From IMG/VR virus record IMGVR_UViG_3300044608_001664: a stretch of DNA of 20,000 bases; one strand, 5' to 3'. Below are positions 8,859 through 18,352 of the stretch, piece by piece. Made by a program: the position numbers and the translations under genes. The DNA comes from an uncultured virus (IMG/VR IMGVR_UViG_3300044608_001664) (lineage: Duplodnaviria > Heunggongvirae > Uroviricota > Caudoviricetes > Schitoviridae). Position 1 is the stretch's first letter. Every line of letters starts with the position of its first letter. A model generated the notes under the pieces. It was not told where the DNA came from. It ran no database searches and saw only the letters and a list, made by a program, of their open reading frames with translations.

Positions 8859-8880
8859 TGCGCTCCGCGCATGGAATGGC
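8859..8880 (+). promoter_or_regulatory. Virion RNAP hairpin promoter P3
   Basis: TGCGC-TCC-GCGCA-TGGAA-TGGC; same spacing as P1. Confidence 0.85.
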
Positions 8881-8924
8881 AAATTCTGCCCCTATCCCTC
8901 ACCTCTTATTACTGGAGAAATATC

Positions 8925-9200
8925 ATGGCTTTCAATTCCTCTTCTGCTGCCGCTGCCACACCAGCTACCCAATCCGAAAACTGGAAGGCTCAAGGCTTCC
9001 TGAACCTGTATCTGCCGTCCAAGGGTGGCCAACGCCGTAAGCTGGGTGCTATCCCGCTCAAGGATGCCAAGGTCAACGAGAAACAACTTCGTGCTTGGCT
9101 GGAAGAAGATCCGTCCCGTGTGACGCAGCTTCTCGCCAAGCTGGAAATCGAGTATCAATCCGCTGCTTCGAATGACGAAAACGCCTTCGCTCTCGATTGA
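8925..9200 (+). CDS. Early protein, possibly N4 gp2-like ssDNA-binding RNAPII cofactor (91 aa)
   Basis: RBS GGAG; has its own promoter and terminator. Flexible N-terminus then KAQGFLNL..GAIPL, reminiscent of N4 gp2, with an acidic tail. Function is inferred. Confidence 0.6.
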   Translation: MAFNSSSAAAATPATQSENWKAQGFLNLYLPSKGGQRRKLGAIPLKDAKVNEKQLRAWLEEDPSRVTQLLAKLEIEYQSAASNDENAFALD

Positions 9201-9517: not shown

Positions 9518-10174
9518 ATGAAACCTATCGTATATACCCTTGGGCAGCACATGCCTAATACCCGTCTTATCTTTATTCAAGAGGTGCCACGAACCAATCC
9601 AAAAGTGCGTCGTGCTACTTTTCAGTGTGCATGTGGAAATGTGGTTGATTTAGATATTGCATGGGTGGTTCACCTAAACACCACCTCCTGTGGGTGTTAC
9701 CGCAGTGAGGTAGTCGCAGAGAAAAACACCAAACATTCTCACGCAGTAAGGGAAAACACCTCTGGGGCATACCGTTCATGGCAAGCCATGCACCAAAGAG
9801 TAAAAGCAAATCCGTTATACGCCCACGTAAATGTGTGTGATCGGTGGTCCGGTGATGATGGCTTTGCCAATTTCATTGCTGACATGGGAGATCGTCCGGA
9901 GCAATTCAGTATTGAGCGACGAGACAACTCCAAAGGATATGAGCCATCCAACTGTGAATGGGCAGATAGAATTACCCAAGCCACCAACACCAGTAATACT
10001 GTTTTAGTAAGTATTGGGGATGAAACACACTCCATAAATGAATGGTGCCGTATCAAGGGAATTGTGTACCACATTATTAAGCAACGTCGCAGGCGTGGGA
10101 TGAGCATCGAAGATGCCATTACCACACCCCTTAATGAATCAAAGAGAGGACGTAAAAATGGACAAAAATCCTAA
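9518..10174 (+). CDS. Free-standing HNH homing endonuclease 1
   Basis: C.CG...TTSCGC zinc-type N-domain, YRSWQAM..R, VCDRW, F..DMG.RP...SIERRDNSKGYEPSNCEW nuclease motif, C-terminal HTH-like SINEWCR. Confidence 0.88.
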   Translation: MKPIVYTLGQHMPNTRLIFIQEVPRTNPKVRRATFQCACGNVVDLDIAWVVHLNTTSCGCYRSEVVAEKNTKHSHAVRENTSGAYRSWQAMHQRVKANPLYAHVNVCDRWSGDDGFANFIADMGDRPEQFSIERRDNSKGYEPSNCEWADRITQATNTSNTVLVSIGDETHSINEWCRIKGIVYHIIKQRRRRGMSIEDAITTPLNESKRGRKNGQKS

Positions 10175-10514
10175 AATATTTTGCTTTGGATCGAATTTGG
10201 CAGGGATTCATGGTGCAGGTGCAGCACGCTTTGCTGTAGAGAATCATGGTGCTCGCTACCGCCAAGGTATCGGGCTTCAGGGTAATAGTTATGCCATTCC
10301 CACCAAGGATCGAAACATCAACACGCTGCCCTTGGATGATATTCAAGAGCATGTGGATGTGTTCATCATCTTTGCTCAAGAACACCCTGAACTGTCCTTC
10401 GAAGTAACCCGAATCGGGTGTGGTTTAGCTGGTTATACCGATTCAGACATCGCACCCATGTTCAAGGGTGCTCCCTCAAATTGCATTCTTCCTGAAGGAT
10501 GGAGAAACCAATGA
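10158..10514 (+). CDS. Conserved phage protein, macro-domain-like (FGSN..G.HG.GAA family)
   Basis: Motifs IFCFGSNLAGIHGAGAA, G.GLQGNSYAIPT, F.VTRIGCGLAGY; AGAGGA RBS before ATG 10158. Confidence 0.75.
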   Translation: MDKNPKIFCFGSNLAGIHGAGAARFAVENHGARYRQGIGLQGNSYAIPTKDRNINTLPLDDIQEHVDVFIIFAQEHPELSFEVTRIGCGLAGYTDSDIAPMFKGAPSNCILPEGWRNQ

Positions 10515-10735
10515 ACCGAGCAGACCGTAGAGCTATCGCCCGAGGTGAGGGGCGACATGAATCCATGATCGAGATCGTCGATCATGACTCTTTGGCTGAA
10601 TACGCCTTTGCACTCTATGACTGGGATGTAGGCAGACGCATCCTTGATAACCAGTACTGCCTGTTTATCAGCCATCAACTCAGTTACTTGGATATTCGTG
10701 ATGAGTTCATGGAAGACCCATACCTACTTCACTAG
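10511..10735 (+). CDS. Hypothetical protein (74 aa, MNRADRRA...)
   Basis: GGAG RBS; ATGA overlap with the upstream gene. Confidence 0.7.
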   Translation: MNRADRRAIARGEGRHESMIEIVDHDSLAEYAFALYDWDVGRRILDNQYCLFISHQLSYLDIRDEFMEDPYLLH

Positions 10736-10744
10736 GAGATCCTC

Positions 10745-11653
10745 ATGGACACGCTTGAACAGATTCAACGGCAGGAAAACATCGAGATGCAATACAACCG
10801 TAAGCACATCGATGATCGTATTCGTAGTGAGATTGAATCCAATCTGATCATGCAGGAGAAGATCGAGCAAGGTATTCAACTGATCACTGAGTACATGGGC
10901 AAGACCTACTATGACTCCAAGAACGCACGCATTGCCCAACTTCAAGGGATGTGCCTGCGTACCTTGGTAACTGAAATCTTCGTAGGTGTGGCCTATTGTC
11001 AGATCGAAGAGTTGTTCACTTCGGTCACTGCCATGATGGCTGGACGCTTGAGGTTCTCCGATAAGCTGGATGCCATCAAGACTGTGGCTGAATTGATGGC
11101 TGTGCTCTGTCTGACTGATGCCTTCGATATCTTGAAGACTTCCAAGACATCCAGCCTGATGGTGGTATCTCGCATTCCCTTGAGTGCCAGTACCCTACGC
11201 TTCATCGAGAACAGCCAGTACCTGCCTCCGATGGTGTGTGAGCCTCTGGAATTGGTGAATAACTACTCCAGTGGTTACCTCACCCACAACGACTCGCTTA
11301 TTCTGGGGAAGGGAAACCATCACCAAGGGGATCTCTGTCTGGATGTACTCAACCTGATGAATCGGGTTCCCTTGGCACTGGCTACAGACTTCCTCAGTAG
11401 TGTTGAGGAAGATCCTACCTTCGTCACTGATACCCCTGAGAAAGCCCAGCAATGGGACAACTTCAAGCGTCAGAGCTATGAGTTTTACCTACTCATTGCT
11501 CAGTATGGCAATCGCTTTTGGTTAACACATAAAGTGGATAAACGTGGTAGAATATATTCCTGTGGATACCATATAAACACTCAGGGAACCTCATTCAAAA
11601 AAGCCTGCGTTGAGTTAGCAACCCAGGAAATTGTTACGGGAGTACCTACTTAA
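10745..11653 (+). CDS. RNA polymerase II subunit 1 (N4 gp15-like)
   Basis: 302 aa; T7-family motifs LPPMVCEP, SGYL and DKRGRIY; RBS AGGAG. Confidence 0.92.
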   Translation: MDTLEQIQRQENIEMQYNRKHIDDRIRSEIESNLIMQEKIEQGIQLITEYMGKTYYDSKNARIAQLQGMCLRTLVTEIFVGVAYCQIEELFTSVTAMMAGRLRFSDKLDAIKTVAELMAVLCLTDAFDILKTSKTSSLMVVSRIPLSASTLRFIENSQYLPPMVCEPLELVNNYSSGYLTHNDSLILGKGNHHQGDLCLDVLNLMNRVPLALATDFLSSVEEDPTFVTDTPEKAQQWDNFKRQSYEFYLLIAQYGNRFWLTHKVDKRGRIYSCGYHINTQGTSFKKACVELATQEIVTGVPT

Positions 11654-11666
11654 TTAAGGAATACAA

Positions 11667-12344
11667 ATGGCGAAACCAAAGAAGGACGTTACCGGAGAAA
11701 TCTATGGAAGACTTACCATTACAGGTGATGCACCCTATCGGTCGAAAGACCGTCGGGTGTTCGTTACCTGTGAGTGTGGAAATACAAAAGATGTTCTTCT
11801 CAATAGCCTGCGTAGGAGGGAAACCACCTCCTGCGGCTGTTACCTTCAGGAACAGATAACCAAACATGGGGATGCCCACGCACGGTTGTACAAGATATTC
11901 AACTCTGTGCACAACCGGTGCTACTTAACTTCATCAGAACGGTATTCAGATTATGGAGGAAGGGGTATTACGGTGTGTGCCCAGTGGTTGAATAACTACG
12001 AAGCCTTTCGCGTATGGGCATTGAAGTCTGGATATTCCGAGGATCTCACCATAGATCGAATCGACAATAACAAGGGGTATTCCCCTGAAAACTGTCGATG
12101 GACTACCCGAAATATCCAGCAAAGGAACAAACGTGCTTTTGTTGGGGGAACCTCTGCATACCGTGGTGTAAGCCACTGCAAGCAAACAGGTAAATGGATT
12201 GCCATGATTAAGGTAAATGGCAAACAGAAAAACCTAGGAAGGTATCCCACAGAAATAGAAGCAGCCCAAGCACGGGACACCTACATCAAAGACAACATCT
12301 TAAAGGGCTTCACACTCAATTTTGAGAAAGGAATAATCCCATGA
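11667..12344 (+). CDS. Free-standing HNH-AP2 homing endonuclease 2
   Basis: YGRLT, CECG, TTSCGC, YGGRGITVC..W, LTIDRIDNNKGYSPENCRW, and C-terminal AP2 domain (YRGVS....KWIA.I....K.LG.Y....AAQARD). Confidence 0.92.
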   Translation: MAKPKKDVTGEIYGRLTITGDAPYRSKDRRVFVTCECGNTKDVLLNSLRRRETTSCGCYLQEQITKHGDAHARLYKIFNSVHNRCYLTSSERYSDYGGRGITVCAQWLNNYEAFRVWALKSGYSEDLTIDRIDNNKGYSPENCRWTTRNIQQRNKRAFVGGTSAYRGVSHCKQTGKWIAMIKVNGKQKNLGRYPTEIEAAQARDTYIKDNILKGFTLNFEKGIIP

Positions 12345-12397
12345 AAGCCATGGTTGAGCTGGCCACACCAGAGGTTGTCACCGGTGTCCCGGCATGA
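12341..12397 (+). pseudogene. Duplicated/orphaned 3' end of RNAP subunit 1 (MKAMVELATPEVVTGVPA*)
   Basis: Aligns codon-for-codon to KACVELATQEIVTGVPT* at 11600-11653, with the stop in the same position. Confidence 0.88.
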
Positions 12398-12422
12398 CTT
12401 CTACGATGCCATCAGTTATGTC

Positions 12423-12653
12423 ATGAGTGCTATGAGCAAGGGCACTCACTTCGTCTTCTATGGGCAGCAGTTGTATGGGGAATACGGGATAGCCACCGTA
12501 CCTCCTGCCAGCCATCTACCAGATGGTGCCTTCATGCTGGCCCCAAGAGGACGTTGGTACCTCGTCTTGAGTGGTGGACTAACTCCAATCAACTATTCAG
12601 ACATTCCTCCTGAAGTACGTCTGAACTGCCTGCTCATGGGCATCTCCATCTGA
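12423..12653 (+). CDS. Hypothetical protein (~76 aa)
   Basis: Open frame 12354..12653; ATG 12423 is the first in-frame ATG; true start uncertain. Confidence 0.6.
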   Translation: MSAMSKGTHFVFYGQQLYGEYGIATVPPASHLPDGAFMLAPRGRWYLVLSGGLTPINYSDIPPEVRLNCLLMGISI

Positions 12654-12701
12654 TCTAGCTATTCACAATCCTATTCATTTATCTATTCAAGGAGTATCCC
12701 A

Positions 12702-13961
12702 ATGACCCCATTTACCGGGTGGCAGTACCTGCTTATCGATGTGGCCAATCAGTTTGGGCTGGATAAGCTGCTCTTTGAGGAGCGTATCAAATGGGCTGAA
12801 GAGAATCTGGATCGACTGGAATCTCTGGTTGATCAGGCTGAAACCAAACCTTTGTACATGAAAGGTGTACAAGCTATTCGCAAGGCCCAGAAGGGTATCC
12901 CGACTGGTCATCTGATCGGCTTCGATGCTTGTTGTAGTGGTGTGCAGATCATGTCTGCCATCACTGGCTGTATCGCTGGTGCTACCGCTACTGGCTTGGT
13001 TGATCCCAATGTCCGTGCCGATGCCTATGCTGCCGTGACGGCCTCCATGAACGAACTGTTGCACAGCCAAGGAATCTCCGTGGATGTGTCTCGGGCTGAC
13101 GCGAAATTGGCGACGATGACATCATTTTACGGAAGCAAGGCCAAGCCTATCGAAATCTTCGGTGAGAAGACTCCTGAATTGGCTGCGTTCTACCAAGCTG
13201 CCAACATCGTTGCTCCGGGTGCATGGGAGCTGCTCCAGGATCTTCTGGCTTCATGGCAACCGTATCACCTGTACCACGCATGGAAGCTGCCTGATGGCTA
13301 CGATGCACGAATCAAGGTCATGGAGAAGAAGGAGTCTCGTATCGAGGTGGATGAGTTGGACCATGCCACCTTCACCTACGAGTACTACGTCAACGAGGGA
13401 ACCAAGAAAGGACTGAGCAATGTGGCTAATGTGGTGCACAGCATTGATGCCTATGTGCTCCGCTCTATCCATCGTCGTTGCAACTACGATGCGCCGATGG
13501 TCAAGCGTGCTTGCATGGCCTTGCTGGAGGAGATGGATCTGCGTAACGCCGGTATCACCGAGCAGGTGCCTCGGATACAAGATGAAAACTGCAAGATCGA
13601 CTACTACGTGAGCCAGTATGAGCGTAGTGGGATGGCTGATGTGGTGATCCTCCCGTATCTCAAGGATGGTAACCAGACCCAGTTCCTGTCGGATACGCAC
13701 ATCATGCAGTTGCTGGATATTGGTGAATCCATGATCGGATACGAACCCTTCGAAGTCATCACGATTCACGATGAATTCAAGTGCCATCCGAACCACATGA
13801 ATCACTTGCGTCAGCAGTACATCAACATCTTCGCAGAGTTGGCAGAGAGCAACATCCTCTCCGATATCCTGTCCCAGATCCATGGATGCAAGGGAGCATT
13901 CCCGAAGCTATCCGACAACCTAGGAGAAATCATCCGTGGCAGCAACTACGCGCTTAGTTAA
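12702..13961 (+). CDS. RNA polymerase II subunit 2 (N4 gp16-like)
   Basis: 419 aa; motif A FDACCSGVQ, motif B R..AK..TMT.FYG, ANVVHSIDA, motif C IHDEF; RBS AAGGAG. Confidence 0.95.
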   Translation: MTPFTGWQYLLIDVANQFGLDKLLFEERIKWAEENLDRLESLVDQAETKPLYMKGVQAIRKAQKGIPTGHLIGFDACCSGVQIMSAITGCIAGATATGLVDPNVRADAYAAVTASMNELLHSQGISVDVSRADAKLATMTSFYGSKAKPIEIFGEKTPELAAFYQAANIVAPGAWELLQDLLASWQPYHLYHAWKLPDGYDARIKVMEKKESRIEVDELDHATFTYEYYVNEGTKKGLSNVANVVHSIDAYVLRSIHRRCNYDAPMVKRACMALLEEMDLRNAGITEQVPRIQDENCKIDYYVSQYERSGMADVVILPYLKDGNQTQFLSDTHIMQLLDIGESMIGYEPFEVITIHDEFKCHPNHMNHLRQQYINIFAELAESNILSDILSQIHGCKGAFPKLSDNLGEIIRGSNYALS

Positions 13962-14772: not shown

Positions 14773-14992
14773 TAACCCTATTGGACAGTCTCGAATTGCC
14801 AACAGGAACCAAGAGTCTCTACGAGCACATCCATTGAATGTGTTCCCTACTCTTGGTTCATTGCAAGAAGTTATTGACCTTGCTGAATCCAAGATGCCCA
14901 TCACTGACAAGAACGAGATGCGTAGCTTGTTAATGACGTACCACAACAGTCTTTTGAAGGTATTGAATGACGAGAAAAACCAAAAGCCTTGA
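14759..14992 (+). CDS. Conserved hypothetical protein (77 aa)
   Basis: AGGA RBS, ATG 14759, overlapping both neighbours; ends ...LLMTYHNSLLKVLNDEKNQKP. Confidence 0.7.
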   Translation: MQLPDNPIGQSRIANRNQESLRAHPLNVFPTLGSLQEVIDLAESKMPITDKNEMRSLLMTYHNSLLKVLNDEKNQKP

Positions 14993-15419
14993 AGAACGGC
15001 TTTGGGGATTAATCGATAAGAAAGCAGAAAATGAATGTTGGCCTTGGCTAGGTGGGACCGTACCTAAAGGATACGGAACTATTAAGGTACTCATTGATGG
15101 TAAGTGGAAAACATCATATGCCCATCGAGAAATCCTTAAATTGAGTAAAGGGGTGCCCATAACCCCCAGAACACATGCTCTTCATTCTTGTGATAACCCA
15201 AGGTGTTGTAACCCACAACATCTACATTGGGGAACTAACTCCAAAAATAGAAGGGAAGCACGGGACCGCTTGCATAACCAAGGGAATCAAAAACTAACTC
15301 CTCAACAAGTTGACGTAATTAGAAACGACTCCCGTACTTATCAGGAAATTGCTAATGATTATTTTCTTCACCGAGATACCATTGCTCGCATCAAACAGAA
15401 GCGTGGATGGTTACCTTAA
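14967..15419 (+). CDS. Free-standing HNH endonuclease 3 (zinc-binding loop type) with C-terminal HTH
   Basis: ECWPWLG, GYG, AHR, HSCDNPRCCNPQHL..GT...N, KLT..QV..IR...YQEIA..Y. Confidence 0.92.
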   Translation: MTRKTKSLEERLWGLIDKKAENECWPWLGGTVPKGYGTIKVLIDGKWKTSYAHREILKLSKGVPITPRTHALHSCDNPRCCNPQHLHWGTNSKNRREARDRLHNQGNQKLTPQQVDVIRNDSRTYQEIANDYFLHRDTIARIKQKRGWLP

Positions 15420-17134: not shown

Positions 17135-17221
17135 AATCTTCAGTAGATTCTCAGGCGCATTCCCTGCGCCATACGAATAGGAGGCCCATGCCTCCTTTTT
17201 CTTTTTTTGAAAGGAAATAGC

Positions 17222-18352
17222 ATGGGCGCTGCTCACCCTATTCAAACCCGGGAAATAACTCCCGAGATTCAAAAGGCTTATGATAAAGCCAAAATCGGAT
17301 TAATGGCAAAGCAAGATACTGCCTTTTTCACCACCATCGTATTCAGTCTCAAATTGATTTGGGACTGGCTCACTCCCACAGCGGCTACCGATGGTTCTTC
17401 CATTCGGGTTAGCCCAGAATTCTTCATGTCCCTCGATCCAGAGGAACGTATTTTCCTGCTGGTTCATGAGTCCATGCACGTTGCCTTACTGCACATGACT
17501 CGCCTGGCTGGACGTAACCACCAGAAATGGAACATCGCCTGCGATCACTACATCAACCTGATGCTGACCGAACGTGGCTTCCGAATGCCCAGGAATGGCC
17601 TGGCAGACCCGCAGTACAAGGGACTCAGCTCGGACGAGATTTACCCTTTGCTACCTGATCAGCCCCAGTCTTCCACCTTCCAGATGGATCTGGAACTGCC
17701 TACGGAACCAGTGGAAGAACTAACCCAAGAGGTTGAAGACATCCTGATCCGGGCTGCCATGCAGTCCAAGATGCAGAACGACAAGCCAGGGAGTATTCCT
17801 GGTGATATCGAAATCTTCCTGAATAAGCTGTTGAATCCTAAATTGCCTTGGCAAAGGATTCTCCAGAAATATATTCAGAATCTCTCAAAACATGATTATT
17901 CATGGAGAAAACCGAATAGGAGATTCTTCCCGAATCATTATCTCCCGAGTATGTTCAGCGAAAAGCTGATGGATATCGCCATTGCTGTCGATGCCTCTGG
18001 ATCGGTTAGCGATGATGATTTCAAGGTATTCGTTTCAGAAACCCACGGTATTCTGAAAATGATGAAACCGGACAAAATAACCCTGATTCAATTCGACCGG
18101 AATATCAAATCGGTAGACCGGATTAATAATATCCGGGATTTAATGAACGTTAAATTCATTGGCCGAGGTGGTACTTCTATTGAGCCAGTCATGGATTGGG
18201 CAGCAGAAAACAAACCGAAACTTCTGCTGATATTCACCGATGGTGGATTTTATTTCCATACGGATGAATATAAAACCAATACCGTGTTTCTTATTCACAA
18301 TAACCCTGGATTTACTTCGCCATATGGCAAGGTGATTCACTACGAGATTTAG
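17222..18352 (+). CDS. HEXXH metallopeptidase-like + vWA domain protein (DUF2201 type, N4 gp25-like)
   Basis: TAATDG, HESMH, WNIACD..IN, MIDAS motif VDASGS, GRGGT, IFTDG; the usual partner of the MoxR ATPase. Confidence 0.9.
   Translation: MGAAHPIQTREITPEIQKAYDKAKIGLMAKQDTAFFTTIVFSLKLIWDWLTPTAATDGSSIRVSPEFFMSLDPEERIFLLVHESMHVALLHMTRLAGRNHQKWNIACDHYINLMLTERGFRMPRNGLADPQYKGLSSDEIYPLLPDQPQSSTFQMDLELPTEPVEELTQEVEDILIRAAMQSKMQNDKPGSIPGDIEIFLNKLLNPKLPWQRILQKYIQNLSKHDYSWRKPNRRFFPNHYLPSMFSEKLMDIAIAVDASGSVSDDDFKVFVSETHGILKMMKPDKITLIQFDRNIKSVDRINNIRDLMNVKFIGRGGTSIEPVMDWAAENKPKLLLIFTDGGFYFHTDEYKTNTVFLIHNNPGFTSPYGKVIHYEI

Follow-up and report, generated by a model that had tools for sequence, protein, structure and literature searches.

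The locus described here, in which an endonuclease gene lies between two copies of the end of rnap1, the small RNA polymerase subunit gene of an N4-like phage, is closest in design to the gene hybrids of fungal mitochondria and closest in mechanism to the intron-less homing of T-even phages. It is found in a stretch of 20,000 nucleotides (nt) from an uncultured virus (IMG/VR record IMGVR_UViG_3300044608_001664), hereafter called the window, with positions counted from its first letter. Mitochondrial gene hybrids formed by mORF elements are reported for atp6 of Allomyces macrogynus and for atp6, atp9, cox2 and nad3 of Glomus (PMC3630166). As presented in that source, they resemble the window in that an endonuclease open reading frame (ORF) lies in the 3′ part of an essential gene, with an in-phase foreign C-terminal piece ahead of it and the native C-terminus downstream, and in that the native piece is the one closer to relatives (91-98% versus 64-81% for the mORF hybrids, 43/54 versus 35/54 nt for the window). 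The mitochondrial enzymes treated there are of the LAGLIDADG or GIY-YIG type, whereas the window protein is an atypical HNH plus AP2 protein of a phage. Its ORF, moreover, stands apart and has a ribosome site of its own, and foreign sequence in the window begins 84 nt ahead of the duplicated part.

Intron-less homing is described for SegF, SegG and MobE, free-standing endonucleases of T-even phages (PMC2988022). In that account, these are promoter-less cassettes beside an essential gene, with a cut site apart from the insertion site, co-conversion of flanking markers, a carrier protected by sequence differences, and a start codon near or overlapping the upstream stop; the window element, as we read it below, is alike in all these respects. 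Unlike the window element, the T4 genes lie between genes, and the parts of that source dealing with them do not mention a duplicated gene end. Cutting and homing have been demonstrated for the T4 enzymes, whereas for the window they are predicted from sequence.

By its architecture, the window endonuclease fits the family of ICP1-like phage AP2-associated HNH (IPA-HNH) homing endonucleases (Barth et al. 2023, PMC10448857). These are portrayed there as having an N-terminal HNH-like domain too divergent for the Pfam HNH_3 model and a C-terminal AP2 domain, as being free-standing and adjoining essential phage genes, and their genes as marking boundaries of genetic exchange, all of which the window shares. 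In the sections of that study on these enzymes, neither an RNA polymerase nor an N4-like phage is mentioned, and a duplicated gene end does not figure. A tblastn search gave matches in 105 Vibrio phage records. The genomic niche itself is known from the same phage group: HNH genes are reported between RNAP1 and RNAP2 of the N4-like phages G7C and EE36P1, and inside RNAP2 of ZC08, and it has been proposed in print that such an insertion split an ancestral single-subunit polymerase (Amgarten et al. 2017, PMC5418858). The portions of that paper on these three phages describe an intergenic placement or a disrupted RNAP2, and contain no replaced or duplicated RNAP1 end, recoded tract or target prediction.

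In a literature search whose coverage did not extend to subscription-only papers, we found no phage paper on a homing endonuclease with a duplicated or replaced gene end next to it, and among the literature found the gene-end-duplication layout is documented only for fungal mitochondria. The window element is a phage version of this known design, real and well supported. What invaded the 3′ end of rnap1 in this N4-like lake phage was very probably a free-standing cassette with a homing endonuclease of an atypical type, HNH plus AP2, and it most likely spread by intron-less homing in which an immunity tract is co-converted. This would provide a clean, naturally occurring phage example of an endonuclease entering an essential coding sequence without intron or intein, by means of a substitute gene end that it carries along.

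A hybrid gene end and a stranded native remnant

The window is a fragment of an N4-like podovirus, with a portal, a large terminase, a Dda-like helicase and a two-gene T7-type RNA polymerase, as is typical of N4. The features of the locus are listed below; loci used for comparison are designated by L and a number.

10745..11653, + strand: rnap1 (hybrid gene), N4 gp15-like small RNA polymerase subunit, 302 amino acids (aa); phrog_2166 'N4-like RNA polymerase', E 3.8e-103
10745..11515, + strand: native-lineage body of rnap1; nt identity 82% to L003 and 70% to L090; G+C at third codon positions (GC3) 0.62
11516..11653, + strand: foreign recoded 3′ end of rnap1, about 46 codons plus stop; left edge approximate (11495-11518)
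11600..11653, + strand: in-gene copy of the duplicated 17 codons plus stop, KACVELATQEIVTGVPT and stop, from nt comparison with L090 and L003
11654..11666, + strand: spacer of 13 nt with a Shine-Dalgarno-like AAGGA ahead of the endonuclease start, read from the sequence
11667..12344, + strand: free-standing endonuclease ORF, 225 aa; phrog_374 'HNH endonuclease', E 1e-67, residues 2-210
12344..12397, + strand: stranded native rnap1 3′ end, KAMVELATPEVVTGVPA and stop; similarity to L003 begins at 12340; GC3 0.59

The rnap1 C-terminus reads FKKACVELATQEIVTGVPT before its stop, and the second copy follows directly past the endonuclease stop. An earlier note on this DNA had claimed that the two tails share 13 of 17 residues with the stop in register, and they were found as described, with 35/54 nt identical. 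A Met-to-Cys change falls exactly at the junction in the in-gene copy. The duplication is not due to chance, because the downstream copy has a blastn match of its own to the L003 rnap1 tail (58 nt, 79%, E 3.6e-8 in a small search). Neither is the layout an assembly artefact, since sequence-identical contigs from three other lake-water runs span the junctions (11017-11839, 11389-11898 and 12288-12518), and virus record G001 carries the same 3217 bases at 100%. In the four read runs, used as contigs at a depth of 2-5, no joint and no endonuclease-free allele was seen. The sole RNA-library run yielded two unjoined 151-nt contigs (12193-12343 and 12496-12646), which have no bearing on transcription, ends or splicing.

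Relatives of rnap1 were sampled as 81 loci from one IMG/VR scan and one scan of metagenome contigs; two IMG/VR scans for such relatives gave 1 and 6 loci. Megablast with 10745-13961 against a phage collection gave no match, and a distant search gave matches of 60-80%. We scanned 79 loci in which the rnap1 end is complete and at least 150 nt follow it; an intact duplicate of the tail was present only in the window and in L124.

A shift in codon usage towards the end of the gene had also been claimed, and the values bear it out: the 255 codons of the rnap1 body have a GC3 of 0.62 and the 17 codons of the downstream copy one of 0.59, against 0.32 for the 47 codons of 11510-11650; the endonuclease ORF has 0.48 and rnap2 0.63. 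Changepoints were located by a likelihood scan with 2000 permutations. For GC3, which drops from 0.62 to 0.33, the best one was at nt 11495, reached in 4/2000 permutations. Nucleotide identity to L003, which is free of the endonuclease, dropped from 0.82 to 0.62 at nt 11518, and identity at third positions from 0.66 to 0.24 at 11516 (0/2000 permutations in both cases). Breaks in both measures had been anticipated in the earlier note. The alignment of rnap1 between the window and L003 is gap-free; past the break, 34 of 45 codons differ, 24 of these being synonymous, versus 108 of 257 codons in the body. The foreign 3′ end spans the KVDKRGRIY (T/DxxGR) motif.

We then compared the two tails with those of relatives. 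The five closest ones (L003 and L086-L089, with 80-85% aa identity in rnap1) have no endonuclease between rnap1 and rnap2. The L003 tail has 43/54 nt in common with the stranded copy, which is the 79-82% level of the gene body, and just 35/54 with the in-gene tail. We conclude that the downstream copy is this lineage's own gene end, in agreement with the suggestion that it is the ancestral one. Other tails share 38/54 nt (L089) and 34/54 nt (L090) with the stranded copy. The in-gene tail has 42/54 nt in common with L090, a 1363-nt contig of a different backbone whose tail reads KACVELAEQEIVTGVPT before the stop. L090 and the window are 83% identical in the tail and 92% in the first 140 nt past the stop; all positions of the spacer but one are the same, as are 42/42 endonuclease residues.

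Informative sites, defined as those where only L003 or only L090 agrees with the window, join the window with L003 at 143 positions of the body and with L090 at 50, and in the tail with L003 at 6 and with L090 at 35 (body versus tail, Fisher p = 1.3e-12). From 11516 on, the rnap1 tract is 62% identical to L003 and 83% to L090 at the nt level. Judged by these comparisons, the in-gene tail is of foreign origin and is inherited together with the endonuclease, and the gene contains a recombination boundary with the endonuclease on its foreign side. The earlier proposal of a co-conversion zone in the recoded tract is supported by the site counts, and by the like tract found in three other pairs of loci (see below).

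Recurrence at the same site and the predicted target

An endonuclease homologue adjoins rnap1 in 7 of the 84 loci examined (window, L001, L084, L090, L100, L101 and L124), and the ORF is intact in the window and the six others. The cultured Cbunavirus phages phiA41 (endonuclease 58% identical) and Possum (48%) have it at the same site. In CB4, rnap1 is followed directly by rnap2 without an endonuclease, and Nepra, CB1, CB3, EK8 and Kc283 also match without the endonuclease stretch. Phages with the endonuclease (phiA41, Possum) and without it (CB4, Nepra) are therefore already in culture. The phiA41/Possum/CB4 set includes cultured Pectobacterium phages.

When rnap1 of phiA41 or Possum is compared with that of CB4, identity is 90-100% over nt 1-840, and then 0.53-0.68 over the last ~145 nt. 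Likewise, L100 and L101, whose endonuclease is 60% identical to that of the window, are 97-100% identical to L098, which has none, in 16/18 bins over 540 nt, with 0.93 and 0.80 in the last 60 nt and 0.53-0.73 thereafter. The left edges of the divergent tracts lie 21 nt (window), 19 nt (phiA41), 9 nt (L100) and 1 nt (Possum) upstream of the Asp codon of DKRGR. The block of rnap1 body shared by L100 (1466-2290) and L098 (2605-3430) stops at the predicted endonuclease target; here a boundary of genetic exchange seems to be marked by a nuclease site.

On the right side, L124, an activated-sludge contig with an endonuclease 53% identical to the window's, has the same junction, CCATGAARGCCATG, as the window. 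Its intact stranded tail, KAMLELAHEEVVQGVP and stop, compares with KGMLELAHEELVQGVPT and stop in the gene (14/17 aa). In the Cbunavirus phages, the right junction lies 3-4 codons ahead of the native stop, and the endonuclease ORF ends within the native TTCAGGAAATGA. In L100, no stranded remnant was seen. The last codons of the window endonuclease, GAGAAAGGAATAATCCCATG, were considered as a relic of a Cbunavirus-like arrangement of stop, ribosome site and rnap2 ATG, and the alignment was too weak to use.

On this reading, the mobile unit extends over about 11516-12343, comprising the foreign, respelled last ~46 codons of rnap1 with their stop, the ribosome-binding site and the endonuclease gene, and it joins recipient DNA 17 codons ahead of the original stop. 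Since the cassette brings its own gene end, the polymerase subunit is predicted to be full-length without splicing, the original 17 codons and stop being left untranslated in frame. Upon co-infection, the enzyme would cut endonuclease-free rnap1 alleles, and double-strand-break repair would copy the cassette out of the endonuclease-bearing genome, using the rnap1 body as left homology arm and the stranded tail plus the DNA beyond it as right arm. The respelled tract would confer immunity on the carrier allele and be co-converted each time. In lake-water run X8, compared over 10700-13000 of the window, a relative with about 87-89% identity in rnap1 and rnap2 is also represented by contigs; related phages thus co-occur, which is the setting that homing needs.

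The recurrent left edge translates into a precise target prediction, the KVDKRGR codons of rnap1. Because the divergent tracts of four independent pairs, diverged also from one another, all begin just ahead of the DKRGR codons, at a distance of 1-21 nt, we place the cut at or near these conserved codons, about 110-145 bp from the endonuclease gene, and give this placement roughly an even chance of being correct. Free-standing phage endonucleases are described as cutting away from their own gene and needing resection into flanking homology (PMC2988022). The Gly-Arg-Ile/Met codons are spelled GGTAGAAT in four carriers of the closer type (window, L090, phiA41 and L100), and otherwise in the endonuclease-free L003, CB4 and L098. 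This spelling was not called as the immunity determinant, the sample being too small.

A serious, though less probable, alternative is that the enzyme of the same element cuts at the insertion junction (FKK/AM codons), as with intron-encoded HNH enzymes, the ~140-nt divergent tract being inherited baggage: once the donor tract had diverged, recombination could start only to the left of it, and the whole tract would be carried along. This would be in line with the identity of the right junction CCATGAARGCCATG in the window and L124 despite endonucleases 53% identical, with the Met-to-Cys change exactly at the junction of the in-gene copy, and with the distance of at most 25 bp between cut and insertion site given for intron-encoded endonucleases (PMC2988022). 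Such a ratchet, however, should leave scattered and ever longer tracts, whereas the four mutually diverged tracts start within 21 nt of each other; moreover, it is the left edge, not the right junction, that is conserved in the Cbunavirus phages and L100.

Several observations weigh against a homing cassette that carries its own gene end. L100 and L098 are just 81-84% identical outside rnap1, so that L100 is a mosaic and the pair is not isogenic. The right junction varies by lineage, at 17 codons before the stop, at 3-4 codons, or with none seen. Nor do the data fit one clean transfer: the L090 tail is 81-83% identical to that of the window versus 92% for the endonuclease start, and the best changepoint in identity between the window and L090 is at 11198, not 11516. 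The in-gene tail shares with the remnant a Thr in ELAT, at a position occupied by Lys in L003 and by Glu in L090, which hints at some exchange between the two copies. Finally, L143 has a decayed duplicate of the rnap1 tail after a small ORF, and no endonuclease. In that locus (L143:1560-1880), the second tail retains 10/17 residues and has two stops; it stands after a small 'LLLMGV' ORF and before the paralogue of that ORF. The arrangement resembles a tandem duplication whose unit comprised the rnap1 tail, with the ribosome site in it, and the small ORF.

Annotation is affected as well, and phylogenies of a marker gene can be misled by the hybrid gene end, by the stranded pseudo-end and by mosaic boundaries.

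The endonuclease protein

In the protein encoded by the endonuclease ORF, Cys-rich strands at the N-terminus are followed by a predicted beta-beta-alpha core resembling that of nucleases and, at the C-terminus, by an AP2 DNA-binding domain. Its family alignment contains 43 sequences; the IMG/VR endonuclease relatives, at most 49% identical, were used for this alignment only. An AlphaFold2 (AF2) model built on the 43 sequences reached a mean predicted local distance difference test score (pLDDT) of 91.7, with strands at 128-131 and 143-146 and a helix at 148-154, forming a beta-beta-alpha unit at 128-154. The AP2 fold was matched with Z scores of 8.1, 8.0 and 7.2, and in a Foldseek search against PDB the AP2 domain alone was matched. 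Pfam likewise detected AP2 only (residues 164-204, E 1.3e-5, below the gathering score).

For the nuclease core, the evidence runs counter to a conventional HNH enzyme. None of the Pfam HNH models matches the protein. Two beta-beta-alpha-metal nucleases with solved structures, I-HmuI and PacI, were matched weakly. I-HmuI (1u3e) has an E value of 0.075; in this weak alignment, its core VVDHKDGNK...NLRWVTQKIN falls on residues 120-189 and its catalytic Asp-His on Asp130-Arg131. PacI (3m7k) is the best nuclease fold match (Z 6.1, root-mean-square deviation 2.6, 77 residues), below the tool's reliable range. In 43/43 aligned members, the canonical first His of the HNH motif is replaced by Arg131, next to Asp130. 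A further difference is that I-HmuI is intron-encoded and PacI is an HNH restriction enzyme. Nuclease activity of the ORF product is accordingly an assumption.

Since Arg131 is invariant, the absent histidine is a family trait rather than decay. D130, Y96, Y138 and N142 are also invariant in 43/43 members, and N154 nearly so. D130 and N154 align, again weakly, with the Asp and the final Asn of the I-HmuI core, which we take to be its metal ligands. The locus thereby draws attention to a large 'HNH' family in which arginine uniformly takes the place of the catalytic histidine. In PacI, a tyrosine is reported to stand in for the histidine base (PMC3384342), which is a precedent for a nuclease without a His base.

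The HNH-like protein might also have lost its nuclease activity, or act as a DNA-binding regulator, the layout being the trace of a past invasion or of ordinary recombination. The family-wide Asp-Arg for Asp-His, the lack of a match to any Pfam or NCBIfam nuclease model and a confident fold match for the AP2 DNA-binding domain only are all compatible with this. We nevertheless consider it unlikely. The constancy of the Arg together with D130, Y96, Y138, N142 and nearly N154 fits a working variant site, not decay, and PacI, the best nuclease fold match, also lacks a His base and is reported to use Tyr (PMC3384342). In addition, the ORF is intact in seven loci, and the presence of the endonuclease differs among near-identical rnap1 genes.

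A second ORF of the same PHROG family is present upstream of rnap1, at 9518-10174 (+) (phrog_374, E 1.5e-38). It is 29% identical to the first, has no AP2 match, and its core, ERRDN, is also without His. This ORF lies in a 919-nt stretch where L003 has 463 nt, so that it too looks like an insertion. It was checked for a duplicated end of a neighbouring gene, and none was seen.

On the single-subunit RNA polymerase profile phrog_414, rnap1 residues 253-297 correspond to positions 377-423 and rnap2 residues 5-147 to positions 426-596. The first gene ending at 423 and the second beginning at 426, the two are abutting pieces of one polymerase. A bolder scenario, to which we give little credence, is that the endonuclease lineage is a long-term specialist on the polymerase T/DxxGR stretch beside the N4 subunit break, that it may have arisen from, or be repeating, the insertion by which the T7-like single-subunit ancestor was split, and that its nuclease site without the canonical His would rely on Asp-Arg and an invariant Tyr, as in PacI. 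If true, the lineage would illustrate, by bringing its own gene end, a way for an endonuclease to get into the coding sequence of a polymerase and not be lethal.

Local duplication, splicing and the downstream genes

Two further origins of the duplicated end were considered. In the first, the 17 codons would have been copied in place, the endonuclease would have landed between the copies, and the in-gene tail would be native, having drifted AT-rich. The L143 tail duplicate without endonuclease, the ELAT Thr common to both window copies and the tandem repetition, one to three times, of the small ORFs of this interval in relatives would all suit such a history. It is nonetheless very improbable: the divergent tract (~11516) begins 84 nt ahead of the duplicated part (11600), the same tract exists in three other pairs with no visible 17-codon duplicate, and the tail joins the endonuclease-linked tail of L090 at 35 sites versus 6 for L003, which contradicts a native origin.

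The second, a group I intron or other spliced element in which RNAP1 exon 1 would be joined to the 12344 fragment with 11600-12343 removed, is barely credible: endonuclease genes do often lie within phage group I introns and the reading frame of the downstream copy would allow it to continue the protein, but Rfam gave no match at E<=1 on either strand of 10500-13000, splicing would gain nothing as the in-gene copy already provides a complete conserved C-terminus and stop, and the RNA-library run shows no joint, although its two unjoined 151-nt contigs cannot decide.

Downstream of the remnant, the following features were identified.

12394..12426, + strand: 10-codon mini-ORF, read from the sequence; its ATG overlaps the remnant stop (GCATGA) and its stop overlaps the next ATG
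12423..12653, + strand: orfS, conserved small gene, 76 aa, which precedes rnap2 in relatives (tblastn)
12702..13961, + strand: rnap2, N4 gp16-like large subunit, 419 aa; phrog_2051, E 5.4e-153; Pfam RNA_pol PF00940, E 7.8e-15

The orfS product is 85% identical to its L089 counterpart and 55-62% to those of L003, L086, L087 and L088 (tblastn); a PHROG profile search with it gave no match. An NCBIfam search with three proteins gave zero matches.

These genes are linked by a chain of ATGA overlaps, read from the sequence: the endonuclease stop with an ATG at 12341, the remnant stop with the ATG at 12394, and the mini-ORF stop with the ATG at 12423. The ATG at 12341 opens a possible 18-codon mini-ORF over the stranded tail. 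In L003, rnap1 has an ATGA overlap with its next ORF, with GCATGA as at the stop of the window remnant. That the remnant is still intact may reflect a young insertion, its use as the right homology arm, or its feeding of the overlap chain towards orfS. In relatives, the rnap1-rnap2 interval (L003:3906-4375; L086:2072-2789; L089:2613-3312) contains one to three paralogous small ORFs with ...LLLMGI/V.. ends, ATGA-linked; the window keeps just the last of them, orfS.

The window is dense in endonuclease-like genes, with further 'HNH endonuclease' PHROG ORFs at 14967-15419 (+) (phrog_1872/3593) and 17207-18352 (+) (phrog_1314). In Possum, a second HNH endonuclease is annotated directly past rnap2 (L084:4475-5008). 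A small ORF at 8871-9200 (+) of the window matches phrog_6271 'toxin' (E 7.9e-12), and a 'toxin' gene is annotated at the corresponding spot upstream of rnap1 in phiA41 and Possum.

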